Made by a program: the position numbers and the translations under genes. Shown here piece by piece: positions 1 to 54,553 of a stretch of 60,838 nt of DNA (its first letter is position 1; each line of letters begins with the position of its first letter). The DNA is from a virus (lineage: Duplodnaviria; Caudoviricetes): positions 1-60,838 of IMG/VR virus record IMGVR_UViG_3300048635_000011. One strand, given 5' to 3'. Under the pieces are notes generated by a model. It was not told where the DNA came from and ran no database searches. It was given only the letters and a program-made list of their open reading frames with translations.

Positions 1-21
1 TCTTCTTCTTATCTACTCCTA

Positions 22-110
22 CTATATAAACTATCTGGTGAAGCTTAGAGGGAGCAACGGAGCGTAGCGAGTAGCGGACTGATAAAGCTGTAGACAGATA
101 GTTTATATAG
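22..110 (+). other. Structured ssDNA-like hairpin, copy 1 (resembles a primosome-assembly/ssi signal)
   Basis: Perfect 16-bp outer stem (22-37/95-110), AGCTT/AAGCT inner stem, GA-GC-A-AC-GGA / GA-GT-A-GC-GGA arms, apical GC-GTA-GC triloop; homologous copies at 48077-48165 (+) and 48202-48259 (-). Confidence 0.75.
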
Positions 111-232
111 ATATTAAATACAAAATTATACCTCCACACTACCTATTATTTCTTGGTTCAAACACTACTGTATAATATATATAAGAGAGAATTTCTAATT
201 TTCCTTATACTACAATCACTTACGAGAAATGA

Positions 233-296
233 TGTATATAGATCCATATACATTTGTATATGAGCTGATATACATCTGTATATAGATCCATATACA
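233..296. repeat. Three tandem palindromic 20-bp units at 22-bp period (iteron/operator-like)
   Basis: TGTATAT-agatcc-ATATACA at 233 and 277, TGTATAT-gagctg-ATATACA at 255; directly upstream of the RepL-like ORF. Confidence 0.9.
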
Positions 297-318
297 TTTA
301 GGTATTATTGGGGAATTT

Positions 319-768
319 ATGACCACAATACAGAAGCAAATTATTCTTGAGCAACTGGATACTTCTACAGGTGAAATTGAAACTACAGCAGTAGAAACTC
401 ATACCTATACAAAAACCAAAACAAAGAAATATGCTTGGTTATTTATAGAAGAACTCCATAGGTTATGGTTGTTAAACGAAATGGAATTAAAACTATTTAC
501 TCACATGATAACCATAATGGATGGTACAACTAACACAGCGGCTTATACTGCTCCTGAAAAGAAGTTAGTAATACAATCCCTCACAGAGAAAGAACTCACT
601 CCTAGAAGCGCAGGAATGCGGTTTAGTCAGCTAGTTTCTGGACTCTGTAAAAAAGGAGTTATTACCAAGGTAACCACCTGCTCTTATTTACTTGATCCTG
701 ATTTAATATCTTATGGTTTTGATGGGTTTAAACAAATAGAGAAGAATAGAGCTATATTTAATCAATAA
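319..768 (+). CDS. RepL-like winged-helix DNA-binding/replication protein
   Basis: 149 aa; C-terminal 'LCKKGVITKV...YLLDPDLISYG' resembles the RepL-family wing motif (L..kgii.k...Y.lNP....G); adjacent to iteron-like repeats. Confidence 0.55.
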   Translation: MTTIQKQIILEQLDTSTGEIETTAVETHTYTKTKTKKYAWLFIEELHRLWLLNEMELKLFTHMITIMDGTTNTAAYTAPEKKLVIQSLTEKELTPRSAGMRFSQLVSGLCKKGVITKVTTCSYLLDPDLISYGFDGFKQIEKNRAIFNQ

Positions 769-769
769 G

Positions 770-791
770 TATATTAGAATATTCTAATATA
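770..791. repeat. Perfect 22-bp palindrome TATATTAGAATATTCTAATATA
   Basis: Immediately after the ORF 319-768 stop; near-identical copy at 47863-47881. Confidence 0.85.
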
Positions 792-812
792 GAACCGAAA
801 AAAAAAATAAGG

Positions 813-1034
813 GTGCTGAAAATGAGAGAAACAAACGATAAATTAGTTGGTACATTAATAGGAGTAGATAGTCATGCTATGAGTATTATTAATCACTTTA
901 CACAAGCTGCTAAAGCACAAGGATGGGTAGAAGAAGATATAAATGAAGTAGTAGAGGATGCTATGTCAAGTACTTATGAATATTTAATACAGACTATCAC
1001 AAACCAGTTTATTATGAGAGAAGAAGTAGTATGA
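813..1034 (+). CDS. Small conserved phage protein
   Basis: LIGVDSHAMSII...AAKAQGW...I..V...AMS..Y pattern common in phage proteins; overlaps next gene by ATGA coupling. Confidence 0.7.
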   Translation: MLKMRETNDKLVGTLIGVDSHAMSIINHFTQAAKAQGWVEEDINEVVEDAMSSTYEYLIQTITNQFIMREEVV

Positions 1035-1339
1035 AATACTTAAAGTTAAGAAAATTATTAAGGGACTCTGCTCCTTCTATGAGTGAATATAGAGAACCTT
1101 TTATTAAGCGAGTTAATTTCCTCTTAAACGAAAGAAGAAGACTACGAGAGCATTGGCTAACTATAGAGGATGTAAACAAGTTTACAGAGTATAGAAAGAA
1201 GAACCAAATAGCTTTAAAAGATTTATTAGAATTTATGCAAAAAGATCCTAACACATTTGGGACTAACATAGGATACTGTGTATCCCCTATTGCTTGGATT
1301 GAACAAGAACTTAATCACAAATATGAGGAAAGACAATGA
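1031..1339 (+). CDS. Hypothetical protein
   Basis: Translationally coupled (ATGA overlap) within a dense operon. Confidence 0.7.
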   Translation: MKYLKLRKLLRDSAPSMSEYREPFIKRVNFLLNERRRLREHWLTIEDVNKFTEYRKKNQIALKDLLEFMQKDPNTFGTNIGYCVSPIAWIEQELNHKYEERQ

Positions 1340-1818
1340 ATACCATTAAAAAAACTTTACTGGGTATAACCTTAGTACTAACCGTAGGAGTAGCTTACCC
1401 ATTAGATAAGAGCACACCTAAAGCACTTAAGACTTGCCATGATGGGAAGAAAGCTATTGGTAGACAAATTAGATTTATCCGTAATTTTAAACGATTACGC
1501 CCACTTATAGTAACTAGAGCTAAATTAGCTGATATGATTAAGGCATCCCCTTGGTGTAAATTGGTTAAACCTAAAGGTAAGCACGGAGGTAATCACATGG
1601 TTGTTCTTCATTACAACTCTAAAGGTATTGTCGGTAAGCAATATAAGTTTAATTGGGAAGACACTAAAAGAATAAATCCTGACAGAGCTAGATATAGAAC
1701 TTGTGCTGCACCTTATGATGTTAGTGTGTTAAAGCAAGAAATAAAGTTATTAAAAGCTATGCCTGACGGAAACTTTAAAGGGGTCTGTGTATTAACAGCA
1801 GGTAACTTTAACTTTTAA
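1336..1818 (+). CDS. Putative secreted/periplasmic protein
   Basis: N-terminal KK + hydrophobic stretch + VAY (signal-peptide-like); GAGG RBS; 4 Cys. Confidence 0.65.
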   Translation: MNTIKKTLLGITLVLTVGVAYPLDKSTPKALKTCHDGKKAIGRQIRFIRNFKRLRPLIVTRAKLADMIKASPWCKLVKPKGKHGGNHMVVLHYNSKGIVGKQYKFNWEDTKRINPDRARYRTCAAPYDVSVLKQEIKLLKAMPDGNFKGVCVLTAGNFNF

Positions 1819-1828
1819 AGGGGCTAAC

Positions 1829-2221
1829 ATGGATATTACTAAGTTTATTTTATTAGAACTTATTAGATTAGGTGACATAAGACACTTAAACAATAAGCAT
1901 AAAGAGTTAATTAATACGACTTCTTACACTGTAGAGTATATTGAAAAGTATATTAAAGATAATATTAGAGTTACAGGAGAGAATGGTATGTTTACTTGTT
2001 ATGAGGACACGCTAGTTTTCAAAACTTGTAATGAAGAAGTAGAGAAAGAGCTACTAGAGATTATGGAGGGTACACCAGAGTTATTAGACTTATTACCTAA
2101 TGAACCAACTGATATACCTACTTACCTACGCAAAGGTATAGAGCTGCTAAAGAGCTACACAAAGGAAGAGAACCCTAAAGTGGTCGCTAGAGCATTATTA
2201 AAATTTAAGGAAAAACAATGA
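1829..2221 (+). CDS. Hypothetical protein
   Basis: RBS AAGGGG, operon context. Confidence 0.7.
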   Translation: MDITKFILLELIRLGDIRHLNNKHKELINTTSYTVEYIEKYIKDNIRVTGENGMFTCYEDTLVFKTCNEEVEKELLEIMEGTPELLDLLPNEPTDIPTYLRKGIELLKSYTKEENPKVVARALLKFKEKQ

Positions 2222-2418
2222 AATTTTTAGAATTAACACACCCTAATGATAATACAAAAGTACTAGTTAATATGGCTTTGGTTACTGATATAGAGGCAGC
2301 TCCAGAAGGTACATACTTGTTCTTTAACTATCATGATGCAAGTATGGGTGAACCAGCTTTTAGACGTGTTAAAGAGCCTCTCAGTGAGATTATATTATTA
2401 ATAAAAGGATTAAAGTAA
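2218..2418 (+). CDS. Small hypothetical protein (FlbD-like pattern)
   Basis: 'MKFLELT...VLVN..LVTDIE...T.L......VKE.L.EI' resembles FlbD-like small proteins. Confidence 0.6.
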   Translation: MKFLELTHPNDNTKVLVNMALVTDIEAAPEGTYLFFNYHDASMGEPAFRRVKEPLSEIILLIKGLK

Positions 2419-3029
2419 TGATTAACTGGTCACACGATGAATATATGCCTAATGGTTTACAACTACGCATAGAAACAACAGAAAACGATAGTGATTATCC
2501 AGAATTTTATACCTATGATGTTGGTAAACAACAAGCAGTTGACATTATAAGAAAACTTTTATTAGCCCCTGAGACTACTGAAGAGTTAGAGGAGTTAGAT
2601 GCTTCACTACAAGAATTTTACATTAGCTATCTTGGGTATGATTATGAAGGAAATAACCTACGGTTATTTGCTGGGTGGACTCTCTATAAGTATAGAGTGA
2701 AAGACGCAAAGATTGTTAAAACCTACTACAAACTAGGAAAGAAAATAATGAGAGTACTTGAAGCGATAACTTCACTAGAATTATTAGTTGTAAAACAACC
2801 TAATAATAAAGAATTGGTTGGTCTAATAGAAGACTGTAAGAAGTACTTACTGGACTCTGCAACTAGAGATAAATGGATAAAAAATGGTGATGAAACAGGC
2901 ATTAATAGTAATACATTAGAGAAGACTTTATATAGTATTGGTATCCAAAATAATACCCCTAAAGTAGTAGACTTAGCCTTAGATTTAAGAGAGCTTCGTA
3001 TTAATCGAGAACAACGGAATTCAAAATGA
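2418..3029 (+). CDS. Hypothetical protein
   Basis: TAATG coupling, 203 aa ORF. Confidence 0.7.
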   Translation: MINWSHDEYMPNGLQLRIETTENDSDYPEFYTYDVGKQQAVDIIRKLLLAPETTEELEELDASLQEFYISYLGYDYEGNNLRLFAGWTLYKYRVKDAKIVKTYYKLGKKIMRVLEAITSLELLVVKQPNNKELVGLIEDCKKYLLDSATRDKWIKNGDETGINSNTLEKTLYSIGIQNNTPKVVDLALDLRELRINREQRNSK

Positions 3030-3226
3030 ATGAATTACTGGACTTTGTAGAAGAATTTTTTAAGCAACATAAGGAAGCTGTTATGAAAGCAGTTAAAAGT
3101 ACGGATGCTGGTAAAGCACTAGCAGATGAAATCAAAGTAATGCAACAACGTAACCAATATGAAGAAGCAGGTGAAATGCTTAGTATCTTGGTTAAGTACC
3201 ATCAAATTAAAGGAAAGGTAAAATGA
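3026..3226 (+). CDS. Hypothetical protein
   Basis: ATGA coupling at both ends. Confidence 0.65.
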   Translation: MNELLDFVEEFFKQHKEAVMKAVKSTDAGKALADEIKVMQQRNQYEEAGEMLSILVKYHQIKGKVK

Positions 3227-3615
3227 GTAATAAAAAAGTAGGTGCAATTAATTTATTGTTAGCAGGAACTGTAGGAGGGATACTCCCTTTTGCTATGACT
3301 TCTGTAGCTGCTAACTTAATGGAAGCTAGTACTTTAGTAACGTATATATTGTGTACTGGAGTCTTTATTCTAAACTTAGTTATCAGTATGAATAGTAATT
3401 CATGGGGTAAAGCATGGAGTACAGGGTTCTACCTTAGTAGTACTATGGCTTTCCTAGCACCAATAGCTTCATTTATAGGTGTATTAGTATCACTACAAGT
3501 TATAAATGCTACTGTTATTATGGGAGCTTTAGTAGTTAATATTATTACTGCTATCCTATTCACTTCAGTATCATTAGCTTTATATGTTGTTGGTTCAGCT
3601 CTAAGCAAACACTAA
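3223..3615 (+). CDS. Membrane protein (about 4 TM helices)
   Basis: Almost entirely hydrophobic 130 aa. Confidence 0.7.
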   Translation: MSNKKVGAINLLLAGTVGGILPFAMTSVAANLMEASTLVTYILCTGVFILNLVISMNSNSWGKAWSTGFYLSSTMAFLAPIASFIGVLVSLQVINATVIMGALVVNIITAILFTSVSLALYVVGSALSKH

Positions 3616-3624
3616 AGGAAACAT

Positions 3625-3816
3625 ATGAAACTACCTCCTTGGTTGTACCTTCATATTCAAGCATTAGGGGCAGACCCTAGTTTAGAGTATGAAGAGTTAA
3701 TCTTATCTATAGACAAACTACTAGATGAGATTAACTACAAGGATTATGCAAGACACTATGCACTAGATGATGCAGCTTGTATATTATTAACAATGAAACA
3801 AAGAAAGGAAATTTAA
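3625..3816 (+). CDS. Hypothetical protein
   Basis: AAGGA RBS. Confidence 0.6.
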   Translation: MKLPPWLYLHIQALGADPSLEYEELILSIDKLLDEINYKDYARHYALDDAACILLTMKQRKEI

Positions 3817-3817
3817 T

Positions 3818-4030
3818 ATGAAATCAACAAAGCGTAGAGCTATTGGTTTAGGTACAGCAGATAACGATACTCCAGTAGGTACAATACCTGCTCTATTAAC
3901 TAAAGCTCAAAAGGATGCTTTTACTAAAGGAGACTGGAGAAGAGCTTGTGACATAACAGATGTAACTATTGATATGTTAAAAGGAGCTGCTCTAGCTACA
4001 GGTATTAAAAATATAAGAAACAAATATTAA
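3818..4030 (+). CDS. Hypothetical protein
   Basis: AAGGA RBS; followed by hairpin. Confidence 0.6.
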   Translation: MKSTKRRAIGLGTADNDTPVGTIPALLTKAQKDAFTKGDWRRACDITDVTIDMLKGAALATGIKNIRNKY

Positions 4031-10815: not shown

Positions 10816-12756
10816 ATGGAGACTTTTATGAAGCGTGTAATTAATGGTAAGGATGCTCTTAATCTAGCTCCTATTAAGTATAAGTATGCTTATGAATTCT
10901 TTCTAAATACAGGTAAAAATTTCTGGATACCCCAAGAAATAGCCGTAGGGGAAGATATTAATTCATTTAAGTATGGTTTGAATGATGCTGAACGGCATGT
11001 ATTTACTCATGTGTTTGCTACGCTAAGTACTATGGATAAGTTAGCAGGTAATATTCTTAATGAATTGTCTACCAAAATTACCAGTCCAGAACACCAATTA
11101 GGGATAGCTGCACAGATTTACCAAGAAGCTTACCATAGTGATAGCTACTTATACTGCTTAACGCCTGATCATGAGGTTCTAACTGAACATGGTTGGAAAG
11201 TTATAGGAGATATAACTACTACTGATAAAGTACTTTGTTATGATCCTGACACTTCATCAAGTAGCTTTCATACACCATCAAAGGTACATAACTACCTATA
11301 CACAGGGGATTTAAATTACTTTGAGGGCAGATACTTTAAACAAGTGACTACGGATGATCATAGAATGCTTTGTATTGGTGCAAGAAGTAGGAAGAAAAAA
11401 GTAAAATTAGCTAAAGAGTTTCCAGTAAACTCTAAAGTAAACTTTACTTTATTAAACCAAGCCCCTTTACAGAGTGTAGGAGTAGGCTTAACAAACCACC
11501 AACGTCTACTAATAGCACTACAAGCAGATGGTACAGTATATTACAATAAATGGCACTTTACACTCTCAAAACAACGCAAAATTAAAAGGTTATTAACTTT
11601 GTGTGCATCACTAGGGTACACAGTTACTACTTCACCTACAACTAGACAAAACATTCCTAATCAAAAAAACTGCACTATATTTAGGGTAAGTGTCCCAAAA
11701 GGAGTGGTAGCTACGAAAAGCTTCTCAGACTGGGTAGAATATAATCAATCTACACAATACTACACTGATTTTATGGATGAACTACAGCACTGGGATTCTC
11801 ATATTAGGGTAGACGGAAGACCATCATTTGTGTATTGCTCTACAAATAGTACTAACGCTGATATAGCTTTAACTATAGGGGTACTGGCGGGTAAGAGAGT
11901 AAGTAGAAATGTTCAAATTGGTAAAGGTACACGTAAAGATTCTTATAGAATAACTTTCGTAAATGCTGACACTGCTAAAGGTACTGTAGTTAAAACTACC
12001 AAAAAGGTTTTTAAACAACAAGTACACTGTCTAACAGTACCCACTGGGTTTTTTGTGGTTAAGGCAGATAATAAAGTGTCAATAACAGGTAATTGCGCTA
12101 CTCATATTGGTTTGGATGAAGAATGGTTATGGAGTAGATGGGAACAAGTACCAGAAATAAAAGCTAAGATTGACTTCATGACAGATAGCTTAAAATCTCA
12201 AACCTTTCTAGGACAGTACTTTACTGTAGCAGCAGTGCTAGAGTCTGTATTCTTTATGACAGGTTTCAACCCTATATTTGCATTGGCTCGAAATAATAAA
12301 GTGAAACGTGTTACTGAGGTATTACAGTATATAGCAAGAGATGAAGACCTACACATTAAGTTTGGTATGGAAACCATTAAAAATATTATTAAAGAGGAAA
12401 ACTTAAAAAAAGACCTTATAACTAAACATTTTAGTAAAATTCTTAATGAAGCTTTACGTTTAGAATATGATTATATTAACTTCATTTATAGTGAAGGAAG
12501 TACTATGGGTTATAACCCTTTGGAACACATGCAGTATGCTTCCTTAAGAGCGCGTAATGCTATGCGTTACTGTGGACTATCAGAGAAACATTTAATACTT
12601 CCTGAAGCTCCAAAGTCCCCTACATGGATACATGAAATGCTTTTAAGTAAGAAAGAAAAAAATTTCTTTGAAGCTAAAGTAACAGAGTATCAATCAGGGG
12701 GGTTGGATTGGAGTAACCCAGACGTAGACCCTTGGACTTTAGAAATTAAAGGATAA
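10816..12756 (+). CDS. nrdB: Class I ribonucleotide reductase beta subunit containing an intein
   Basis: FWIPQEI, QEAYHSDSY (E..H...Y radical motif), LESVFFMTGF, IARDEDLH, NFFEAKVTEY. Confidence 0.92.
   Translation: METFMKRVINGKDALNLAPIKYKYAYEFFLNTGKNFWIPQEIAVGEDINSFKYGLNDAERHVFTHVFATLSTMDKLAGNILNELSTKITSPEHQLGIAAQIYQEAYHSDSYLYCLTPDHEVLTEHGWKVIGDITTTDKVLCYDPDTSSSSFHTPSKVHNYLYTGDLNYFEGRYFKQVTTDDHRMLCIGARSRKKKVKLAKEFPVNSKVNFTLLNQAPLQSVGVGLTNHQRLLIALQADGTVYYNKWHFTLSKQRKIKRLLTLCASLGYTVTTSPTTRQNIPNQKNCTIFRVSVPKGVVATKSFSDWVEYNQSTQYYTDFMDELQHWDSHIRVDGRPSFVYCSTNSTNADIALTIGVLAGKRVSRNVQIGKGTRKDSYRITFVNADTAKGTVVKTTKKVFKQQVHCLTVPTGFFVVKADNKVSITGNCATHIGLDEEWLWSRWEQVPEIKAKIDFMTDSLKSQTFLGQYFTVAAVLESVFFMTGFNPIFALARNNKVKRVTEVLQYIARDEDLHIKFGMETIKNIIKEENLKKDLITKHFSKILNEALRLEYDYINFIYSEGSTMGYNPLEHMQYASLRARNAMRYCGLSEKHLILPEAPKSPTWIHEMLLSKKEKNFFEAKVTEYQSGGLDWSNPDVDPWTLEIKG
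11155..12093 (+). mobile_element. Intein with LAGLIDADG-type endonuclease domain (313 aa)
   Basis: Starts CLTPDHEVLTEHGWK; block B VTTDDHRM; LQADG and WDSH endonuclease blocks; VHCLTVPTGFFVV; ends ITGN/C. Confidence 0.92.
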
Positions 12757-28500: not shown

Positions 28501-31500
28501 AATAACTGTAAATGAGCATTAATAACACCATTAGTAGTACCATCTACCTCTCTTGCTAGGTTAGTAGTTATACTGGTTACTTTATCTTTACTGGTTAGTG
28601 CTTGTGTGTATTCTGCTAGAGCTACTAAACCATCCATAGAATGATACTTCTCCCCACCTTCTTCACTAATAGCCTTAAGTACTACCTTTCTCTCTGCATC
28701 AGTAAACTTAGCATCACCACTATTGATAATAGCTACTGCTTCAGCCCACTTACTATTTACATTACCTTTCTCATCCACATATCCTGTATCGAAATCTTCT
28801 ATTACAGTAGAAGAAATTTTACCTCCTAATGCTTCAACTATAGCTCTCTTATGTGCATTAATACCTTCCACATTAGACATCTCTATGGTTGCATCCCAAT
28901 CAGTTGCATCAAATGCAAATCTATGAAGCTTAGTATTCTGAGGATTAATTAGTTTATTAATGAAACCATTTCTAGCATTACTCCATGACTCCAATTCCAT
29001 AGATATTTTGGTTTCATAATCTAAGTTACCATCTGCATCTTGAAACTGCTTATGAAATTCTAATATAGCATCTATACCTTTTTCTGCTTCTCTATTCTTA
29101 CCTTTTAGACCATTACGCTCTTCTATATGTCTCTCTTCTATATTATCCACATAACCATTTATCTGCATAACACCTAGTTTACCTAACCGAGCCATGAACT
29201 TAAAGATGTTCTTCTTTGGTTTATATTGCACCTTCTGATTCTCAATAATAGCTTCCTTATGTAAAGGAGCTACATCAGCGTAAGTTTTCTTCATCTTATC
29301 AGGAGCAGTTGTTACTACTTCAGTAGGGTTTACTTTAACTACTTTCTCAAGATCAAATAGAGCTTTATTAAGTTCTTCTTGTTCCTTGTAAGTTTCAATA
29401 CTCTCTTTAGAGTCTTCATTTACTCTAGCTAAACCATTACCTGTATCTGTACGTTCTGCTTTAAGTCTAACAAAGTTAATCTCTGCTTCCTTATTATCTG
29501 TTTGGAACTCAGGGTTAAGTGTTTGCATAACCTCACTGGTTACACTAGTAAACTCTACATCTCCCATGTGCTTTAAGGTAACTAAACCATACTCACCAAA
29601 GCTAGTAATTAATCTAGTTTCAAAGTTACCATCTATATCATCATTCAACTTAAGGTTAAGTTGCTTGAGTACTGACCTACCTATGAAGTCTTGTGCATTA
29701 GGTAATAGAGTTCCTATCTCCTGTAGAGTCTTTTCAGCTCCATCAGGTAATACAGAATCTTTAGGTTTACCTAATAATGAGTTAATAGCTCCTTCATCAT
29801 TCATAAGAGTATCCATAGATTTAGTAGCTAACCACTCTCTTGTAGCTATAGCGGTAGCAGTAACAACATTTTCAGTCATTACTCCATCAATATCTCTAAA
29901 CATATCAGCAGGTGCTTTACCTAATACTGATCTATGTTGTTTACCATTACCAAACCAACTTCTTAATGTATTCTCTGTATATTCCTTATGGAACGGTACT
30001 AACCAGTCTTGTATTAATGCTTCTAATTGTCCTTCTGCTTCTGTGTTTAAATCGTAGGTGTCTACTACCTCTTTAAAACCTTCTTTAGTTTGGATTGAAG
30101 TAAGGAAGTTTACAGAATTACCAATAATACTACTTGAAGTTTTCTTAGCTTGGGAAACCATATTATATATTGGTTTTAAACTTTGTGTGTATTTACTATC
30201 TTTAACAGATGAGGCTACCTCTGTAATATTAGCTTGACTATTAATAGTGGGGTTTATATTACCCTTCAATAAATGTTCAATAGCATTATCTGGATCAGTA
30301 ACAACTTCTGTGTCTTTACTTTTATTAGGGGTTTGATTAGCTAAGTAACCTTGTAACTCTTCAATTGTAGGGCTTGTGTAGTCCGCTAGTGCGTTCTTAA
30401 TAGCTTTGCTTTTAGATAGTGTGCCTTTAGATATAGCACGTCTTATATCGGCTCTGAGTGTCTCTACTGTAGGCTTAGTATCCACATCCTTCTTAACTAT
30501 CTTTTTCTTCTTTTTAGGTACATACCCTTTAGTGAAAGTGTACTCTTTGCTACCATCAGAATTTACTTTAACAGTATAGGTAATGTCTTCTTTTTCTATG
30601 TGCTTAATTAGGTTTTCAACACCATCTTCTATACCATCAAAAGTTTTCTCATACCAAGTACCCTTCTTATTAATAGTTTCAATGACTTTTTTAGAATTTT
30701 TATCATGTAATTTTTGTTGCTTTTTATTAGCAGATATAGCTTCTGCTCTACGCACTAAATTATCTACGAATGTCTTAGCATCTCCTTCTAATCCTGCTTT
30801 TTGTAGTTTTCTAAGAGCGGGTAGGCTAGTAGAGGGATTTCCCGCTTTAGTCATTACTATAGGTTTAATTTTAAGGTCAGTGAATAGTAGTTTCTTTAAT
30901 TGTGAAGTACTCTTAGGGTTAAAATTTTTGGTTAATTTATCTAAATTAGACTCTTCTCTTTTAGTAGGCTTTTTAATTTCAACAGGCTTAACCCATTGCC
31001 CTACAGTAGTATTATCCTTAGTAACATCTGAGTAAATATACCCTGCTTTTTCTAAATCATTGGCTAGTGCTTGCTCTCCTTTATTATAAGTAGACTTAGC
31101 TAAGTACGCTTTAGAATCAGTTAGTATTTTAGCTCCTGCTTCTAATGCTGTAGTAACTTGAGCCAGTGTAGCCTTGTAATTTGCCCTACTAGGTGAGCCA
31201 TTAACACTTACAAATACAGTGTCTTTACTTGAGTATTTTCCACTATTAACAGGCATAACCTTATTGTCAGTAAGCTGCTTAGCGTAGCTTCCTGTAGACT
31301 TATTACCTATACCAATATACTGAGTAGCCATACTTAGCTTCACAGGAGCTTTAACAGCATCAGGTTTAGCAGTAACTTTAAGCTCAAATGGTTTAGTACT
31401 TGTCGGTTCTAATTTAGAAGCCAATCCACTTACTACACCCTTTACTGTATCTGTATGTACTAGAACAGCTTTCTCTACTTTTGTTAGGAATCTTTCTGCT

Positions 31501-34500
31501 TGAGGTAAACTAACATCTTTTCTCTTAAGGAAAGACTTTATATTAGTTACTTGAGAATCAGATAAACTTTTGGTTTTTAGTAAAGGGGTTACCTTATCTT
31601 TAATAGCTTGGATTGCTTGTACGTCTTTTTCAACTACTTTATTTTCTTTATTTAAGAGTTTTTTATAGACTGATCTAGCTCGTTCAATAGTGTAATTAGA
31701 GGACTTAAAGAAATCCTCTATCCAACCAAGTTCCCCCTCATTTAAATTTTTAGTCTTAGCTAATTCTAAAGTAGTTTGCTCTATCTCATCCTTTGTTTTA
31801 AGAGGTGTACCAGTATTAACATCAGTTAATTTAGTAACCATATCAAGAGCTGCTCTAGCTAGTTGAGCTTCTGGTAAGATACTATTCTCTAGTAGCTCAG
31901 GAGCATTCCTTACTTCATTGGTTTTTCTATACACAGGTATTTTATATGTGCCTGTACCGAAGTCTATAGTAATAGTTTTATTTTGCCTCTTAGCCTCCGC
32001 TATACCATCCTGTAACTGTTTAACTTTCAGTTCATGACTATCTACTAGTGTCTCTAACTCTTTGAATAAAGGAGCAGGGTCTTTTCCTGACTGCACTGCT
32101 TCAGTAATATCAGCAATATGTTTAGGTAACCCTTTTTTATCTACATTGTTACGATTAGTTGATAGTAAATCTTTAGCTACTTTACTGTTACTTGCTTTAA
32201 CTTTAGTAACTAAATCTTCATATACATTTACAGCAGCTAAAGCTTCTCTAGTTTTAGGAGCAAGCTCTTTCTTATCTATAGAGTCTAAAGTCTCTGTAAC
32301 ATTACCTGTAGAACCATAGTTACCTACGATGTCTAGTACATCTGAAACCAATACATCTTCATTAATGTTACCATCTTCATTTACTTGTTTATTGATGTCT
32401 ATAGCTCCTTCTTGTGCCATAGTATCCTTTAAGCCTTCTGTAATTCCCATTGACTGCGTGAGTACATTATAGGCTGAATCATATTCAGCTCCTTTTAGTG
32501 TCCCTAGTTCATCCAAAGCTTCACTTTGAGCTTGTACACGAGTAGTAATATTCTCCCTTATAGTTTGGTTAGGTCTTTCTTTTGAGTAAGTCTCAGTACG
32601 CATATTCCTTAGAGCTGCTATACCAGTCTTATGATCATTACTCATAGAAGGAGTAAACCCTTCATCTAAAGCTATATTCCAAGCTTCATCTTTACTTTTA
32701 CCTGCTTTAATAGCTGTGTTGTATTTAATTCTTGTTTGTTGTAATGCGTTTCCAAATTCTTTATGGCTGATGAAAGCCGCGTTATTCCCCATATTACTAT
32801 AGTAAGAACCATCTTGCTTAATACGTCTTCCTTTATAGCCCTTAGTACCATTAACTCCTATACTTGCCCATTCCATAGCACCAGCTAACTTAGCTCCTTC
32901 CAAGTTAGTAGATTTACCCATAATGTAATCTCTAATAGCAGGTCGTCTATCTTTCATTAGGTAATTCTTGAAGATATTCTCTTGCATCTCATTGGTCACA
33001 TAGTCAGTATCCTTAGCTCCTATAGCTTTTAAACCAAGCTTCATAGTATCAGGGGTAATCTGGTACTTACCTACTGTAAAGATTCTGTCATTATGCCCTC
33101 TTGGTAGAGATTGCCTTCTACGCATCTCTCCTACTGTCATTCTATTGAAGTTTATAGTAGCCCCATGTGCGTCACCTGCTTGTCCTTTATTAAAAGAGCC
33201 ATAACCTCCTTCTCCTTTAGATACTAAGCTTCCTATACCTCCTTTAACTATCTTAGGAGTATCGAAGGCTGCTTTAGTAGCACTACCTGCCATAGCTCCA
33301 ACAGTGGCTGCATGGAGCATTTTACTTTTATCTATAGACTTATTAGTGTGGTGAATACCGCTTAATTGTTCTAGTGCGTTAGTGCTACCTTCCTCTAAGA
33401 ATTCACTAGCACCCCCCACTACAACACCACCCACTAATTTAGCAGGTTTACTAGTAAGTAACTTATTTAATATTGTACCTTTAGATACCTTAGTTTTTTT
33501 AGCCAGTATCCCCAAAGCTTCTGATAATGCTTTAGACTCTAAAGGTTTAAATAAGCCCTTAAGCCCTTTACCTGCAATAACTTCTGCTCCTACCTTATCA
33601 ATCAAGGTAGCTGCCGTAGAATATGCTCCAATAACAACCATCTCTTGTCCATTAGGATCAACACCTTTATGGTTTTTCTTGAAGTCTTCTACACCTTTTC
33701 TGTACCTATCATTAGCTATAGCAGTGAAAGCTACTGGAGCTGCATACACCATTGCTAACATTTCAGGTAGGGACTCTGCTACTACTCCTGCCACTGCTTG
33801 AGGGTTATTAACAATACCTTTCCCTATAGTAGAAAGTACCGCACCTGCTGCTTTTAGACGATCTCCTTTACTCCAGTCCTTAATAGCTTTATCTGTTCTA
33901 AATTTAGTCTGCCTATTTAACTTCTTATCTTTGGAAGTATTAGTGTAGTCACTGATAACTTTATCGCTACTCTTCTTCATCTCTTGGAAAGTGCTTTCAA
34001 CTGTCTCAGATGCTTTTAGCAAGGTATACGCACTACCTGCTCTAACATTAGGAGCATTAATAAATGCTTTTTGCTCTTTAGAGTAGCGTTTAGCTTTCAG
34101 GTTTTGAGTATACTCTTCTTCATCAAACCTAGTGAATTTCTTAGCGAAAGCTCTCCTAGAAGCTTCCTTTTCTGTGTCCTTGGCTACTTTAGCATCTATT
34201 GCTTGTATACTCTTAAACATAGCTCTATCTGCTTTAGTAACGTCAGAAGTAGTACTTACATTGGCTACTGAAGCTACTGCTCCTAGTACTTTATCTACTG
34301 CTTTAGCAGATGCTCCAACGTATTTAACTCCTATATTAGCTGCTGCACCACTATAAGTATCAATAGCATCATCAGATAACCTTTTACCATTATCAGACTT
34401 AGTCCTATTAGTCCTGTCTTCTAATGTTTTAGCAATGTTGTATTGAGAATAGTAGTTACCAGAATATTCAGGTCTATTCATAAAATCATTAAGACTACTA

Positions 34501-35045
34501 CCATCAGGTAGCCTAAGATCAGCTAAAGTTCTCTTATTGTAGTAAGGATCTTGTCTTGAGTTATCAATCTCCATTGTAGGAGTTTTAGCCCCTACAAAAT
34601 CTTTAGGTACTGGTAGTTGCCCACTAACTATTTTGTCATAAAGAGCTTTCTTAGCTATTTCTCCTTGCCTAAATACATCTTCGTTGGTTACCTCACTTGT
34701 AGGTACACCTAAGAATGTAGCAAGGGTTTGTCTTTGTCCTGCCATTTTAATCTGGTTACGAGGAATAGATAACCACTTAGCATCTTTAGTAGTTTCGTAA
34801 GCATCAAAAGTTTTTAGTACTTCTTCAGCATAAGCCAATCTATAATCCCCTACACCATCTCCGTCATGTACAGGATTCTTAGCTAGGCTAATTTGCTGTA
34901 GTCTATTCTGTTTATCTACAGACTTATTTATTAAATTAGCTTTCTTCTGTTCTCCTAAACCAATGATAGGAGCTGATAGAACCATAGGCTCATCAGGTGT
35001 GTTATCAAGCCCATTAAATTCATTAGGGGATAATAGATCAGTCAT
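22575..35045 (-). CDS. Virion-encapsidated RNA polymerase (N4 gp50-like)
   Basis: 4156 aa, no Cys seen; NPQ..KLHR, motif A EVDGTTNG, motif B RNMAKYPL..IVYSAG, motif C VFDA; C-terminal QYSDFVARY. Confidence 0.97.
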   Translation of the reverse strand: MTDLLSPNEFNGLDNTPDEPMVLSAPIIGLGEQKKANLINKSVDKQNRLQQISLAKNPVHDGDGVGDYRLAYAEEVLKTFDAYETTKDAKWLSIPRNQIKMAGQRQTLATFLGVPTSEVTNEDVFRQGEIAKKALYDKIVSGQLPVPKDFVGAKTPTMEIDNSRQDPYYNKRTLADLRLPDGSSLNDFMNRPEYSGNYYSQYNIAKTLEDRTNRTKSDNGKRLSDDAIDTYSGAAANIGVKYVGASAKAVDKVLGAVASVANVSTTSDVTKADRAMFKSIQAIDAKVAKDTEKEASRRAFAKKFTRFDEEEYTQNLKAKRYSKEQKAFINAPNVRAGSAYTLLKASETVESTFQEMKKSSDKVISDYTNTSKDKKLNRQTKFRTDKAIKDWSKGDRLKAAGAVLSTIGKGIVNNPQAVAGVVAESLPEMLAMVYAAPVAFTAIANDRYRKGVEDFKKNHKGVDPNGQEMVVIGAYSTAATLIDKVGAEVIAGKGLKGLFKPLESKALSEALGILAKKTKVSKGTILNKLLTSKPAKLVGGVVVGGASEFLEEGSTNALEQLSGIHHTNKSIDKSKMLHAATVGAMAGSATKAAFDTPKIVKGGIGSLVSKGEGGYGSFNKGQAGDAHGATINFNRMTVGEMRRRQSLPRGHNDRIFTVGKYQITPDTMKLGLKAIGAKDTDYVTNEMQENIFKNYLMKDRRPAIRDYIMGKSTNLEGAKLAGAMEWASIGVNGTKGYKGRRIKQDGSYYSNMGNNAAFISHKEFGNALQQTRIKYNTAIKAGKSKDEAWNIALDEGFTPSMSNDHKTGIAALRNMRTETYSKERPNQTIRENITTRVQAQSEALDELGTLKGAEYDSAYNVLTQSMGITEGLKDTMAQEGAIDINKQVNEDGNINEDVLVSDVLDIVGNYGSTGNVTETLDSIDKKELAPKTREALAAVNVYEDLVTKVKASNSKVAKDLLSTNRNNVDKKGLPKHIADITEAVQSGKDPAPLFKELETLVDSHELKVKQLQDGIAEAKRQNKTITIDFGTGTYKIPVYRKTNEVRNAPELLENSILPEAQLARAALDMVTKLTDVNTGTPLKTKDEIEQTTLELAKTKNLNEGELGWIEDFFKSSNYTIERARSVYKKLLNKENKVVEKDVQAIQAIKDKVTPLLKTKSLSDSQVTNIKSFLKRKDVSLPQAERFLTKVEKAVLVHTDTVKGVVSGLASKLEPTSTKPFELKVTAKPDAVKAPVKLSMATQYIGIGNKSTGSYAKQLTDNKVMPVNSGKYSSKDTVFVSVNGSPSRANYKATLAQVTTALEAGAKILTDSKAYLAKSTYNKGEQALANDLEKAGYIYSDVTKDNTTVGQWVKPVEIKKPTKREESNLDKLTKNFNPKSTSQLKKLLFTDLKIKPIVMTKAGNPSTSLPALRKLQKAGLEGDAKTFVDNLVRRAEAISANKKQQKLHDKNSKKVIETINKKGTWYEKTFDGIEDGVENLIKHIEKEDITYTVKVNSDGSKEYTFTKGYVPKKKKKIVKKDVDTKPTVETLRADIRRAISKGTLSKSKAIKNALADYTSPTIEELQGYLANQTPNKSKDTEVVTDPDNAIEHLLKGNINPTINSQANITEVASSVKDSKYTQSLKPIYNMVSQAKKTSSSIIGNSVNFLTSIQTKEGFKEVVDTYDLNTEAEGQLEALIQDWLVPFHKEYTENTLRSWFGNGKQHRSVLGKAPADMFRDIDGVMTENVVTATAIATREWLATKSMDTLMNDEGAINSLLGKPKDSVLPDGAEKTLQEIGTLLPNAQDFIGRSVLKQLNLKLNDDIDGNFETRLITSFGEYGLVTLKHMGDVEFTSVTSEVMQTLNPEFQTDNKEAEINFVRLKAERTDTGNGLARVNEDSKESIETYKEQEELNKALFDLEKVVKVNPTEVVTTAPDKMKKTYADVAPLHKEAIIENQKVQYKPKKNIFKFMARLGKLGVMQINGYVDNIEERHIEERNGLKGKNREAEKGIDAILEFHKQFQDADGNLDYETKISMELESWSNARNGFINKLINPQNTKLHRFAFDATDWDATIEMSNVEGINAHKRAIVEALGGKISSTVIEDFDTGYVDEKGNVNSKWAEAVAIINSGDAKFTDAERKVVLKAISEEGGEKYHSMDGLVALAEYTQALTSKDKVTSITTNLAREVDGTTNGVINAHLQLLPPLTESVKHILRRGGLFFKGDPWKNAQEYLESKGALDNYENIAKKMTTHFKYAKDKLSDQDKAKFVVLEELFGKLVIEETLEGIKVFTVSKGARNMAKYPLMTIVYSAGNASIKEEIVNSFKLDVYKKLAEAKAKGDKTGDYTDLLVLQQQVGILIGKKGFKFSNQEFLIKNNKVTNSKDPNYPLHWVFPKGDFDTASLIDRTYGTAMVGAVDEVLGGLKANSQAIVEAVRLSAEISKIIYERRVVEKTQLKGHELSKKEKDEIMYLMQRNGELTSVKNPASTGFNDSTPFGELERVPLENKEDGSVQTRFNAPITKIATTLENGEIVTKESDPVTTNTTTIKAHSLSGDIGVKGFLTQNIGFDAYVNSRAMLRSKMLHVFDAQMINSQDVMKDTKPVNRDFLEVNRNHSIMKETQKTVVRALQQVQKFTPKEKQALQEALFGGEKALLTRGTTNETTGNSIREPHTKISDWFKLFNETVYQVEKNRDQFFDEVISSEQFRETGTAYKVDNPLTAKVTPDQATTERIENMEKQLQTLKDLKSKEKKGFLKGVETQIKHYEAIIKRNNKKLKAARHSDLRVKPKEAIAEAELQLIALNFAKTPQYKGEDTINKIEDQIEQRKWMRDNPEEVIQTYIDDLLKEDFLSEEVINEEREAKKEERKLEAKDKSNERIIQRLSKTLDGKLPENTRHIIITDMLNSLESDDNVHIPNQVEGIITSSGANLLSYTDRFGNEITFSARTDLLYVNNDMVDMDKLGDVFTFTEAEKKAIEEGDLDNATEAIKYGILVNKNYYPRNRQKVTEAIRGSFNSTFESLINEKDFENVLEQRVTAETVQDVYDELGNKDKTNIDASHKERLDSLMEDLITPFLKKVDRVKVQIQSKTKYNEGRINGKNIFINIGSSVTSAMPIQEVFTHEIAHAIWDVGLNGNTFARRELVNLFKDAQKQLEAKYGKNAYEIFLDKDANGNNVFVNERAERKVAKQTYGYIFDNKSTDTLSEFGTFALTNQKFIEALKTLKKSKKKLSTDKSFLDNLVTIFSKILDFIASKFYGTDTSKSLDQSVLALAGKVNEISIHHSVGIIAKAKQTVDSTTGRLLIQYVVQPLTTLNSKALKTLRFKSSKYNIPHKLATIATGGFNIALKLTNEPTRKVTSEVLDRADMHRDNILRKTYVEMSKPSNSRRSWNAMLRQVKKLLDGQAEATTSEVATSVEQGFDPDKRISDKDWMKLNNGVLKTSLHNLINTYSLAQIGSLMRSEQYLSKKIKETESKLRASKEYNFYRAQAEGLGKLMATGNSNIEMQYKNVDTIVKGHLIEGFEVDSKAESLIDELSTLYAIKHTDSDVKATTARYIKHEGTRKVEYNGIETMMSLQQNFEQESLDRLFQGNKLNTIKGWTVENTNSDIDMQFVTANKMREMENQGYINHGLLDKSKQTIRDPNKTKVYLMTSRTAALQRWQSGIVSTVAQHRKGSSIEDIYQRIDAENDVYDQYAISAQVDLDKMRKQGIKVLQRQRAGNYKYEGTNPLSPTVTADGIHTFSYLMNEETKVELLGKEDKANVVLGQMYGSIIRKTEAKSFNKKVVIKAHDEFMASYRGNEHKFTKISIDSDNAKYKEYFEMMPYDMRQDLKQTWGGDYMYIKTDLLDMVLGFRKFSFTNWLDSKLPLHKELKRTMLLTGQIWQAVVSRAKRNVVILTPAVLAANVVSNMVLSVVKGVPFTYALKYQSSGVADIISYQEMLTKVNKAKRHLKANPKQKNRKALETKIHRLETELAKSPVHDLIEEGTFQTIVEDVTEKEDSLTKAVSNAFPETAKKLKGASDAIPDKIKDIYHVAVISPNTKLGKILTNATQYSDFVARYAMYRYLTEVKKVDKKTAIEDIMDTFIDYNENTSKAAQYVNDIGILMYTKFLFRIQRVILQIFSKHPATAIGVEVLQQALGNLPDIPDAFLPFKMSLSRLSSPEGLIDDAFQFNILNYLSYLIPH

Positions 35046-40823: not shown

Positions 40824-40846
40824 ACTCCCCTTATTATAAGGGGAGT
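40824..40846 (-). terminator. Terminator after the major capsid gene
   Basis: ACTCCCCTTAT-n-ATAAGGGGAGT followed by ATTTT on the minus strand. Confidence 0.65.
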
Positions 40847-40857
40847 TCTATATGTTT

Positions 40858-45723: not shown

Positions 45724-47136
<1,413 letters not shown>

Positions 47137-47139: not shown

Positions 47140-47850
47140 TTATACCCATCCATTCATTTCTAATTTTACATTATCAAAATTCTCTCTATGAAGTAGTGAA
47201 TTTCTTTCTATACTTACACAAGCTGCTTCAAACTTAGCTAAGTACCTTTCTTTTTCTCCATTAACTGTATCACCACTTAAACCTACACTCAATCTTGAAC
47301 CAATATACATTAGTAAAGGCTCTAGTAGCATATCAGGTAACTCTAACTCTAAATCAGGTAAATTACTACTGTTAATATCTATTTTAGGGTGGGAAGCTCT
47401 GTAGGTAACATGAATAGTGTTACCTGTTATTGGGTAAGGGTGCTCTATGACATTATAGGTAGGAGTAAATACAGATAGAGCATTATCTCTATTATTTAAT
47501 GGTAATTCTACCCCTACCTCATTCTCAACTCTTTCTACTTTAAGTACATCCCCTATAAAAGGATACATAGTTGAATCTGATATGTACTTAATAGGTTCTG
47601 TACTACTTATATTACTTTGGGCATATTTAGCATCTAATTTATATAAGGATAAATTACTCTGCAAGTCTAAGGTTACGCTATTAACTTTAACAGGTAATCT
47701 TTTATATATAGCTACTAATGCTATATTTATGTGAGGTATAATTCTAAAGTAATCCTCTGTCTGTATAGAGGTGTTCCCCTCAAAACCACTATACTCTATT
47801 AAGGATAACTCCCCTGATATTAAGTGATCGAATATTTCTTGTAACTTCAT
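47140..47850 (-). CDS. N4 gp67-like head-tail adaptor
   Basis: MKLQEIF..L..GELS...IN.AL..IYKR...LELP..L...L..YI..R...GWV; true start 47850 after AGGAG RBS. Confidence 0.88.
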   Translation of the reverse strand: MKLQEIFDHLISGELSLIEYSGFEGNTSIQTEDYFRIIPHINIALVAIYKRLPVKVNSVTLDLQSNLSLYKLDAKYAQSNISSTEPIKYISDSTMYPFIGDVLKVERVENEVGVELPLNNRDNALSVFTPTYNVIEHPYPITGNTIHVTYRASHPKIDINSSNLPDLELELPDMLLEPLLMYIGSRLSVGLSGDTVNGEKERYLAKFEAACVSIERNSLLHRENFDNVKLEMNGWV

Positions 47851-47862
47851 TTTTTGTGCTCC

Positions 47863-48037
47863 TATATTAGAATATTCTAATTTACTTCTATATATCATTT
47901 GTATATAGATCCATATACGTTTGTATATGGATTCATATACGTTTGTATATAGATCCATATACATCTTTTCTCCTAAGTGTATGTAAAATATAGGAAAAAA
48001 ACTTTTTTCTCTTATATATATTATACAGGGTGTTTTT
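47863..48037 (-). repeat. Second, inverted copy of the origin-like cassette: palindrome + 3x22-bp units + AT-rich flank
   Basis: Units at 47900, 47922, 47944; reverse complement of 47964-48037 aligns with 160-232 (CTGTATAATATATATAAGAGA...CACTTA.GAGAAA.GATGTATAT); TATATTAGAATATTCTAAT at 47863. Confidence 0.9.
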
Positions 48038-48076
48038 CATGTATATTTTTCTTTTTTCTTTTCCTTCTTTTTAACC

Positions 48077-48165
48077 AATAAATTAATAGTAGGTGAAGCT
48101 TCGATTGAGTAGCGGAGTGTAACGAGCAACGGAATGAGAAAGCTGTAGACTACTATTAATTTATT
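48077..48165 (+). other. Structured ssDNA-like hairpin, copy 2
   Basis: 16-bp outer stem of different sequence from copy 1; same GGTGAAGCT...AAGCTGTAGA core; GT-GTA-AC triloop. Confidence 0.75.
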
Positions 48166-48201
48166 ATTCTTTTTCTCTTTTTTTCTTTATGTGCGCTTTC
48201 G

Positions 48202-48259
48202 GCTACAGTATTCTCCCTGCGATGCTCACTACGTTCCGCTTCTCAGTCGATACTTCACC
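48202..48259 (-). other. Structured ssDNA-like hairpin, copy 3
   Basis: Minus strand GGTGAAGTAT CGACT GAGAAGCGGA ACGTAGT GAGCATCGCA GGGAGA ATACTGTAG, with the same spacing and compensatory changes. Confidence 0.7.
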
Positions 48260-48318
48260 TCTCGCTTGTAATGGTATTGTTTTATGTGTTCTCTTCTTAT
48301 ATTGGCTCTCTGTTCGAT

Positions 48319-49908
48319 TTAGGCTATATATGAATCTATGTCTTCGTAATCATCTGTTTCTATAGTATCCCATAATTCAGGCGATTCTTTCTTTGGTTTG
48401 ATAGGTAGGTTTGCAGAAGGTTTCCAAGGTGTCATATTAGCTAACATGCTAATGGTATCTATAAAGTCATCATGCTTGCTTTTAAAGGCACTCTTAGTTG
48501 CTAACTTAAGCTCATTAAGTGCTTCTTGTATCTCCTTACTTTCTTTCCGTTCTTCTGGAAAATAAATCCTATTCATTTTGAACCAAGGTACTACCACATT
48601 AAACCTTGTTATCTTATCTGTTACAGGTCTTATACCTACTGTAGTACCATCTTTATCTTTTGCTAAGGGGAAGAACACATTTCTACTCATCATCTCATTT
48701 TGAATCCAAGATACAAATCCTTTTTGTTGTCCTGATATTTCGATACCTACTGATTGTGGATTGTACTCTTGGGCTAGTCTAAAGAGGTCTTCTATGTTCT
48801 TATCCATCAGTTGCTTCTCTACTATACCGTCTACCCAAAACCAATCACCATTATTATTATATGCCCATACACTTATAACAGAGTAATCAGCACTGTTCTT
48901 ACTACTAGTAGCAAAGTCAGTAGTAATGTAGAAGTTAAAGCTACCTCTATTCTTTAATAAGGAAGCTCTCCTATACCAACTAATATCACAATCTTGTATT
49001 AACCTATCTTCATCACTCATAATCCGTAACATAAGTTCTTGGTTAAAGGTATCAATCTTACCTGAGTTCCTAGCCTTCTCATATTGGCTCAATACATAGT
49101 CATAATCAAATCTGTCTTCCCATGCTCCTTTAAAGTCTTCCCTCTTAACAGGGAACTTCTCACATACAGGGAACACATTAGCGTACCAAGCACCTGATTC
49201 AATAGCCTTGTACAAAGGATCACGGGCATTAAACGGAGTACCAGACCATATAGTTTTTCTTCTGGTAGGATGTAATGCGTAGTCAACAGCTTTATAAATG
49301 GTGTCTTCTATACTTGCTATTACTGTTGGACTCCTAGCATCATCATCTGATATTAAGTCATCAAGTACAGCAAGTACTGGTCTTTGCCCTTGCTCTTTTG
49401 CACCTCTGACTCCAGTCTTAGCCCCATAGCCCCTAACTATAAACTTATGTCCTGATAAATTAGTAAACTCATAACGTACATCAGTAAACCTAGTATGTGG
49501 TATATAATGCTGTAAGAACTCAGAGTTTTGCCACCTATATTCTAAGTTCTTCCTCATATTCTTAACACCATTCTCTATACTATCTGAAACGTATAAAGCA
49601 AAGCTAATATCCCCAAACTGAGGTAAACTCCCATACACAGCTACATACAAGAAGAGATACTCTCCCAAAACTGTAGTTTTTGCAAGACCTCTACTACACA
49701 TATTACAGATACCTTTCTTACTACCTGCTATCTGGTCTAACATCTTATAGTGTACTACTGGAGTCTTATGTTCCTCTCCAGTACCACCATTAACTAATTT
49801 AATAAAACTAACAAACTCTAAAGCAAAATCACTTGGTATGTAATTTGGATTATCCTCATAATCTACATCATTTAAGTAGTCTTCTACTTGTTTTTTAATC
49901 ATTCCCAT
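48319..49908 (-). CDS. terL: Terminase large subunit (N4 gp68-like)
   Basis: RGLAKTT Walker A, VLDDL Walker B, GTPFN, TTDFATS, HDDFIDTISML. Confidence 0.97.
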   Translation of the reverse strand: MGMIKKQVEDYLNDVDYEDNPNYIPSDFALEFVSFIKLVNGGTGEEHKTPVVHYKMLDQIAGSKKGICNMCSRGLAKTTVLGEYLFLYVAVYGSLPQFGDISFALYVSDSIENGVKNMRKNLEYRWQNSEFLQHYIPHTRFTDVRYEFTNLSGHKFIVRGYGAKTGVRGAKEQGQRPVLAVLDDLISDDDARSPTVIASIEDTIYKAVDYALHPTRRKTIWSGTPFNARDPLYKAIESGAWYANVFPVCEKFPVKREDFKGAWEDRFDYDYVLSQYEKARNSGKIDTFNQELMLRIMSDEDRLIQDCDISWYRRASLLKNRGSFNFYITTDFATSSKNSADYSVISVWAYNNNGDWFWVDGIVEKQLMDKNIEDLFRLAQEYNPQSVGIEISGQQKGFVSWIQNEMMSRNVFFPLAKDKDGTTVGIRPVTDKITRFNVVVPWFKMNRIYFPEERKESKEIQEALNELKLATKSAFKSKHDDFIDTISMLANMTPWKPSANLPIKPKKESPELWDTIETDDYEDIDSYIA

Positions 49909-53430: not shown

Positions 53431-53487
53431 TCAGCAAAACATATATTTAAAAACATAGCAATCATGCTACACATAAGGAGAAGTACT

Positions 53488-53739: not shown

Positions 53740-53844
53740 GACCGCTAACATCACCTATTCAAACGTAGGTGATAGAGTAAACTTTCGTAAAACATTTTTT
53801 TAAAAAACATAGCAATAATGCTAATTAAACAAGAGGAAAATACC

Positions 53845-54186: not shown

Positions 54187-54239
54187 CCTAACCAAACCAC
54201 TAGCAATCCTGTTAGTGGTTCAACCTTTGGAGTAATACC

Positions 54240-54458: not shown

Positions 54459-54468
54459 CCTAACTAAT

Positions 54469-54492: not shown

Positions 54493-54553
54493 AAACTTTC
54501 GTAAAACACCTATTTAGAAACATAGCAATCCTGCTAACTAACTGGAACATATC

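Follow-up and report, generated by a model that had tools for sequence, protein, structure and literature searches.

The sequence analysed here is the whole of the IMG/VR virus record IMGVR_UViG_3300048635_000011 (60,838 bp; linear and about 82% complete according to CheckV; 33% GC), called the window in the following, and judging from its genes it derives from an uncultured N4-like phage. It carries two copies of a compact cassette. Site A (positions 22-792, plus strand) includes an open reading frame (ORF) for a 149-aa RepL-like protein, whereas site B (48260-47862, minus strand), which lies 47 kb away in inverted orientation, has the same non-coding modules and no ORF. The explanation that we prefer, and to which we would give about an even chance, is that this phage has captured a RepL-type initiator-iteron origin module, and that B is a second cis copy of it, the site arrays of the module probably blocking transcription as well.

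In N4-like phages, the start of replication and its link to late transcription are poorly defined. N4 itself replicates from its genome ends, and no dedicated replication initiator for N4-like phages is named in the literature examined; a full-text search found no paper in which 'RepL' and 'Schitoviridae' occur together. RepL-plus-repeat modules have already been annotated in phages. New are the N4-like host lineage of such a module, the full second copy without the gene in front of structural genes, and the conserved long-stem hairpin with its GC-rich head. From a module as compact as this one, in which a hairpin, an AT box, and three 22-bp sites accompany the gene for a 149-aa protein, one could learn how a plasmid-type origin comes into a lytic phage, what role a gene-less copy plays, and whether one protein joins replication and late expression, and the cassette pair provides a natural comparison with and without the gene. 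If the module were merely a repressor-operator pair, it would be an ordinary accessory regulator.

The modules common to both sites, always in the same order, are a 59-nt GC-rich head closed by a 16-bp stem, a 21-nt AT box, three palindromes with a 22-bp period, and a 26-nt AT palindrome. An earlier note on this DNA had described hairpin, AT-rich block, three 22-bp sites, ORF, and palindrome for A and the same set without an ORF for B, and each of these elements is present at the position given there. Segments 168-296 and 48028-47900 are similar over 129 nt at 77% identity, or at 78% with an E value of 1.2e-24. Within them, the 21-nt box of A recurs exactly in B (21/21); it matches twice in the window against 0.06 matches expected, and one of 100 shuffles reached two. 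The spacer between box and array measures 44 nt in both copies, 28 of the 44 positions being identical. Half-sites of the palindromes are invariant across A and B (12/12), and in the array of A the central 6-mers of sites 1 and 3 contain GATC. When no mismatch is allowed, the pattern GTATAT-N6-ATATAC occurs six times in the window, three times at 234-295 and three times at 47901-47962; with up to two mismatches there are 13 matches against 11.4 expected. No occurrence of this array pattern was obtained in the viral and genome collections searched. The last of the three sites in A ends 22 nt before the start codon of the RepL-like gene, so that any rep transcript must cross the array.

The AT palindrome (767-792 versus 47887-47862) is identical at 25 of 26 positions with an E value of 3.4e-6. 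Its 16-nt core is exact in both copies, and at up to three mismatches its two matches do not exceed the 2.46 expected by chance; an 18-nt AT palindrome is present in 76 viral contigs, which we take as chance in AT-rich DNA. Beyond the palindrome the identity between A and B falls to 11/29. From the third site to the AT palindrome the distance is about 12 nt in B and 470 nt in A, where the interval holds the ORF, and the description of B as A minus its gene therefore stands. Conservation between the two copies is mosaic, modules being 81-100% identical and spacers and flanks 38-64%, which argues that both copies are under selection, unlike a recent passive duplication. When the 40-mers of the window are ranked by duplex stability, box and palindrome fall, in A as in B, within the least stable 0.2% and among the 20 lowest-ranking regions, the AT palindrome of A being the second least stable of all, although in a genome of 33% GC a promoter would look alike.

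It may be mentioned that an ATG preceded by an AGGAG ribosome-binding site (RBS) lies at the first palindrome of B, and that its frame (47964-47851, minus strand) runs in phase through sites and palindrome into the gp67-like gene, giving the listed 274-aa ORF. The matching ATG in site A opens a frame of 18 codons only. Probably the in-phase frame in B is due to chance; a leader peptide is the alternative.

Hairpin A folds stably both as RNA (z -4.46) and as DNA (z -3.68). The heads of A and B2 are oppositely oriented relative to their own cassettes. B contains two head units in opposite orientation, of which only B2 has its own stem, and A contains one, the DNA upstream of A being missing or uncorroborated. 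Unit B1 can pair with B2 (-66.95 kcal/mol, z -7.07). Each head carries two direct copies of the 9-mer AGHARCGGA, which in head A lie at 53-61 and 70-78, and five of the six matches to this motif in the window fall within the three heads. Between the stems of A and B2, 11 of 16 pairs are changed on both sides and yet all 32 cells are still paired; one of 500 shuffles reached this, and in slid controls 29-48% were paired. This compensation is suggestive, as chance is hard to credit at the same register, although a comparison of two sequences is no statistical proof. The ordinary phage terminator at 40830-40855, a short GC hairpin followed by a T run, is unlike these structures with 16-bp stems and 59-nt heads. 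Two matches returned by a pattern search with the hairpin head turned out to be unrelated GC-rich coding stretches.

Comparisons at several levels indicate that ORF 319-768 is a divergent relative of RepL (PF05732), no threshold member of that family, because a transitive link through one homologue, a profile-profile alignment, and structural neighbours all lead to RepL. An exhaustive phmmer search among 1.84 billion representatives recovered nine relatives besides the ORF itself, encoded on contigs of 0.7-49.6 kb. Among these, P0007, which is related to the query at E 3.3e-7, gives a full-length match to PF05732 with 35.7 bits, the cut-off being 20.3, and six out of six of its own relatives carry PF05732; another, P0006, matches weakly at 16.9 bits. 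When the query group without P0007 was aligned by hhalign with the PF05732 group of P0007, a probability of 96.5% and an E value of 8.4e-10 were obtained over 125 columns. P0009 (1312 aa, seven matched stretches) was excluded from all alignments, and P0010 (130 aa, partial) from alignments A2, A4, and A5. In the ESM Atlas the best feature score was 0.96 and RepL sets made up 23 of the 30 matches, and template-modelling scores to RepL clusters were 0.57-0.68, several of these clusters being mostly viral and two of them at 60-69%. The AlphaFold2 model (pLDDT 75.1) predicts an N-terminal beta region and, at residues 46-133, a winged helix comprised of helix-turn-helix and wing. Taken with the links to P0007 and the Atlas neighbours, this agrees with the earlier assignment of the ORF as a winged-helix protein related to RepL. 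The ORF lacks the C-terminal tail found in its nearest homologues.

A symmetric homodimer is predicted with a score of 0.45, the best control scoring 0.00; contacts agree to at least 97% between runs and the partner pLDDT is at least 78. Of the proteins solved as same-chain pairs, 20 of 30 reached the mark for this score, and of those solved as single chains 1 of 23. Such a predicted dimer would fit the palindromic sites. Other searches added nothing to the family. The word-indexed homologue search returned the ORF itself as sole match among 14 candidates, and tblastn gave no match for the ORF in cultured phages and plasmids and none for its closest homologue P0002 in cultured phages. With a smaller family alignment, no confirmed locus was obtained in viral, metagenome, and genome collections, nor with P0008 alone in metagenomes, and a search of PDB sequences with the family profile produced rows at chance level only.

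P0007 matches RepL-type genes in 10 records of cultured phages, and at all three of the loci examined tandem 21-22-bp sites precede the RepL gene, so that such sites seem to be a trait of the RepL family. In Pseudoalteromonas phage HS5 the stretch 90-200 nt ahead of the gene contains 21-nt repeats, three direct ones, one inverted, and a further direct one; Vibrio phage 1.148.O has two repeats 21 nt apart; and in Sodalis phage phiSG1 four palindromes (TTACTC..GAGTA) follow each other with a 22-nt period, besides two others. The RepL genes of HS5 and 1.148.O are situated two genes ahead of a toprim or primase-helicase gene. All three loci thus resemble site A in possessing a RepL-family gene, 2-6 tandem sites at a 21-22-bp period, and a long upstream gap, and phiSG1 shares in addition the palindromic nature of the sites at a 22-bp period. 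However, these phages are not N4-like and have neither a conserved long-stem hairpin nor an AT palindrome, and in phiSG1 a -35/-10 pair follows the arrays, while in the present phage the array adjoins the RBS.

Among better studied replicons, proteins with a PF05732 domain are classed as single-winged-helix plasmid initiators in a recent preprint (bioRxiv 10.1101/2024.09.03.610885), and RepY is reported as a functional replicase of the PF05732 type (PMC9025767). For the roseobacter 'RepL' of PMC6789725 the same article denies homology to PF05732, and the plasmid concerned was excluded as evidence. In crAssphage, two RepL-like ORFs are described near strand switches (PMC4111155). The pSN2-type Rep and RepY of Paracoccus/Sulfitobacter plasmids resemble the present protein in being small (about 150-190 aa) and of the single winged-helix type, with tandem sites before the gene; in contrast, the protein described here resides in a lytic-type N4-like phage and not in a plasmid, has 149 aa, and scores below the Pfam threshold. 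Lambda O is reported to bind iterons of 19 bp, which are imperfect inverted repeats and adjoin an AT-rich tract that becomes unwound (PMC7466680), and palindromic sites are therefore compatible with an origin. The likeness to ori-lambda extends to several palindromic initiator sites beside an AT-rich tract; different are the position of ori within the O gene, the recruitment of the host helicase by O via P, and the single origin of lambda. Where the earlier note had spoken of iterons, the three sites at helical spacing by a rep gene were indeed found, but as palindromes they correspond to dimer sites like those of lambda ori and lack the directionality of plasmid iterons. For oriV of RSF1010, two hairpin ssi signals (ssiA/ssiB) on complementary strands are described that are used by the element's own primase (PMC8567376). 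Site B, with its two oppositely oriented head units in a phage that encodes a primase, may be analogous, although the RSF1010 hairpins as described there measure 40 nt and not 59-nt heads on 16-bp stems, no sequence relation exists, and the primase families differ.

Repetition of initiator sites far from the rep gene has precedents in P4 crr, P1 incA, and the alpha/beta origins of R6K, where such sites act in cis as co-origin, enhancer, or copy-number control. In those elements the binding repeats alone are shared, whereas here the whole non-coding set is duplicated, inverted, and placed 47 kb away. Its position at B is specific to this lineage. All 14 related loci have terL ending no more than a few tens of bases from where gp67 starts, whereas 468 nt separate the two genes in the window, so that B is a lineage-specific insertion; the earlier note had proposed to look for empty terL-gp67 sites in relatives, and these were found. 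Within the 30-kb leftward block, B is the only intergenic gap of more than 60 nt.

Independent assemblies cover most of this arrangement. In Logan run X1, a 15.2-kb contig equals window positions 168-4000 with 0 differences and extends 5.4 kb further upstream, so clearly the genome continues upstream of A, and a 28.7-kb contig holds site B arranged as in the window. Before position 168 the former contig has different letters, which resemble the A-rich block that precedes the box in B; window positions 1-167, hairpin A included, thus rest on the window's own assembly. That positions 1-134 are without contig cover in this run is by itself no proof. Box, sites, gene, and palindrome of A and the whole of B have therefore been assembled independently. 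It is precisely where the 21-nt box common to A and B begins that contig and window part, and this suggests an assembly or strain breakpoint at a repeat. A second run (X2) provided only a short piece (2216-2544), from which nothing was concluded, and in a run from a hydrothermal-vent metagenome 95% of the words sampled from window positions 1-3000 were present.

Features of cassettes A and B and of the genes adjoining them (window coordinates).
Feature	Position	Strand	Remarks
Hairpin A	22-110		arms 22-37/95-110, 16 nt, 100% complementary, AT-rich; head 37-95, 59 nt, GC-rich
AT-rich block of A	160-232	+	21-nt box 168-188, perfect TATAAT 171-176, then 44-nt spacer to first site
Three palindromic sites of A, 22-bp period	233-296		(T/C)GTATAT-N6-ATATACA
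RepL-like winged-helix gene	319-768	+	149 aa; RBS GGGGA 8 nt upstream
AT-only palindrome of A	767-792		22-bp perfect core 770-791; overlaps RepL stop codon; about 30 nt before start of next gene
First gene after cassette A, 70 aa	822-1031	+	PHROG 1933
gp67-type virion structural gene	47140-47850	-	PHROG 2125, 3.7e-57, profile 1-234 of 234 covered, start 47850
AT palindrome of B	47862-47887		directly 5' of AGGAG RBS of gp67-like gene
Three palindromic sites of B, 22-bp period	47900-47963		copies of A sites
A/G-rich 35-nt B-specific insertion, then 21-nt box (48028-48008)	48008-48063	-	from sequence comparison
Hairpin B2	48077-48165		16-bp perfect AT-rich stem 48077-48092/48150-48165; head 48092-48150, 48/59 identical to head A
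Unit B1, degenerate 59-nt head copy	48201-48260	-	same sense as cassette; without own closing stem, alone z 0.59
terL, large terminase	48319-49908	-	PHROG 38, 1.5e-96; directly upstream of cassette B

If the module is an origin, RepL dimers would occupy the three palindromes, whose 22-bp spacing corresponds to two helical turns and would place them on the same face of the DNA, and the nucleoprotein complex so formed would melt the adjoining unstable AT box. The long-stem hairpins with their GC-rich heads, present on both strands at B, might serve as priming or loading signals for the phage primase in analogy to ssiA/ssiB of IncQ plasmids. Site B would serve either as another origin or as a partner of A that binds RepL and acts in cis. 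Since the arrays are placed after the only conserved TATAAT and before the next RBS, occupancy by RepL should also block transcription. Bound RepL may in this way throttle its own operon as well as the operon that reaches from gp67 to the virion RNA polymerase, and late gene expression would thereby be tied to the ratio of RepL to its sites. A more far-reaching version, which we regard as unlikely, is a two-site device for replication and timing with origins at both A and B, in which the arrays hold late genes off until new genomes titrate RepL, and which might permit a plasmid-like carrier state. To our knowledge, no such state is known for Schitoviridae. The suggestion of a phage-plasmid made in the earlier note gained no support from the window, where neither a tyrosine integrase nor ParA (AAA_31) nor ParB_N was found, although about 18% of the genome is missing.

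Several observations weigh against an origin. ORF 319-768 has no direct Pfam or PHROG match and no RepL match at E <= 10, so that it stays below the Pfam threshold for RepL, and a six-frame search of the window with PF05732 (gathering score 20.3 bits) found nothing. Of the HHpred/Foldseek comparison that had been proposed, the profile-profile part did connect the protein to RepL by hhalign, whereas Foldseek returned nothing at E <= 0.001. Structure searches of the PDB gave winged-helix domains only, generic ones, repressors and initiator domains alike, and VIA-align (best Z 7.5; pPS10 RepA Z 5.9) does not separate initiator from repressor either. Hairpin A is uncorroborated by independent assembly. 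The genomes of HS5 and phiSG1 contain no further copies of the sites and no second gene-less array, which leaves B without parallel in the loci examined, and five relatives' contigs (30-85% complete) are without the protein and without the site array, from which it follows that N4-like phages replicate without this module. The GC skew, which had been suggested as a check, shows no inflection at B; as it tracks the coding strand and follows gene orientation it is uninformative. None of the four window matches to E. coli-type DnaA boxes (TTWTNCACA) lies in either site, such boxes not being universal in phage origins. The AT palindrome, 470 nt from the sites in A and about 12 nt in B, probably does not belong to an unwinding unit as a constant component. 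Finally, both cassettes are co-oriented with the next gene and abut it, with the AT palindrome by the RBS, which a role in transcription explains and an origin does not need.

The last point leads to the main alternative, a Rep-derived regulator as already named in the earlier note, which we consider less likely than an origin module but well worth weighing: the protein would be purely a transcription factor, a RepL-like autorepressor or timing regulator without any role in replication. The box would then be a host-type TATAAT promoter without a -35 element, the palindromes would be roadblock operators, the long hairpins would end the upstream units, and B would control the operon from gp67 to the virion RNA polymerase. 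Palindromic sites and a predicted symmetric dimer suit such a factor, as does the order of box, sites, AT palindrome, and RBS in both copies; the array of A has to be crossed by any rep transcript, B as the sole sizeable gap of its block is a natural place for an internal promoter, and most of the fold matches are repressors. In addition, it is described for N4-type phages that the host polymerase transcribes the late genes, starting at sigma-70-like promoters (PMC4496689, PMC9163698). On the other hand, neither in A nor in B does a consensus scan detect a sigma-70-type promoter at the box, and a conserved -35 element is lacking, although promoter rules may differ in the host. From the conserved TATAAT to the first site the distance is 57 nt, and the sites, at about +50 to +113 from a transcript start at the box, would occupy an unusual place for an operator. 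The hairpins do not look like the ordinary terminator of this phage, the protein is related to a family known for its replication initiators, and RepL genes of phages adjoin primases.

Less probable still, in our opinion, is a selfish or passively duplicated cassette, in which A would be autonomous and B a miniature gene-less derivative that came to lie in the terL-gp67 junction and has little or no present function. This would agree with B being an insertion relative to all 14 relatives, with the location of the RepL region among accessory genes of mixed ancestry, with the absence of protein and sites from the five relatives' contigs and from viral and genome collections, and with the occurrence of some homologues on 1-2-kb contigs. 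But no transposase, integrase, or nuclease was found in the window, the mosaic conservation points to selection on both copies, and the stems, with 11 of 16 pairs differing, do not qualify as terminal repeats common to both copies. Of the earlier idea of a mobile-element pair, nothing but B being an insertion speaks in favour, and the differing stems and the lack of a transposase speak against it. That the protein is a TerS-like or centromere-binding adaptor, and B next to terL its recognition locus for packaging or partition, seems very improbable to us. B does adjoin terL, but the likely genome end near 52961-53400, where strands diverge and hairpin early promoters begin, is about 5 kb from B, ParA and ParB are absent from the window, and the family link is to initiators.

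The assignment to the N4-like phages is in line with the gene content. A 4156-aa ORF (22575-35045, minus strand) is the giant virion RNA polymerase, terL is 64-70% identical to terminases of Schitoviridae, and the gp67-type gene, the first one downstream of cassette B, leads the leftward block to the virion RNA polymerase. Among the rightward genes at 1-22283 are those for an exonuclease, a primase, a Sak4-like protein, and a single-stranded DNA-binding protein. The 70-aa gene behind cassette A has its relatives in T4-like phages and not in N4 core genomes, so that cassette A lies in an accessory region; it has no match in the five relatives' contigs, and blastn of window positions 1-4000 against cultured phages gave no match. 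A gene for a family-A DNA polymerase was not found in the window, where the sole PF00476 signal is weak and falls within the virion RNA polymerase, and no RNAPII-like ORFs were noticed there. As the window ends within an open gene and about 18% of the genome is missing, the genes for DNA polymerase and RNAPII-like proteins are presumably located in that part, upstream of base 1.

At 53436-59428, six copies of a motif of about 34 nt, each ending in a hairpin with a 5-bp stem (TAGCA-N4-TGCTA), precede rightward genes. By their sequence they look like N4-type early promoters of the virion RNA polymerase and would mark the early region at the right end of the window. The 437-nt divergent gap at 52961-53400 is C-poor and rich in G, T, and A on the minus strand, with many short TAGG/TATAGG-like repeats, and a 21-nt direct repeat (tatgtcaaaataattt.aaat) occurs twice just upstream of the first leftward gene; this gap may represent the end of the genome or a terminal-repeat region. 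A collagen-like tail-fibre gene (45724-47136, minus strand), which follows the gp67-like gene directly, is rich in Gly-X-Y, with dense 9-nt periodic repeats and a local GC content of 0.42. Parts of a 646-aa ORF (10816-12756, plus strand) match PHROGs for the small subunit of ribonucleotide reductase, PhoH-like proteins, and thymidylate synthase, and it may be a fusion or an intein-bearing gene. An Rfam scan detected three tRNAs and nothing else; these tRNA genes, Leu-AAG, Gly-ACC, and Tyr-GTA, lie at 20030-20448 on the plus strand, and the anticodons of the first two start with A, which is unusual.

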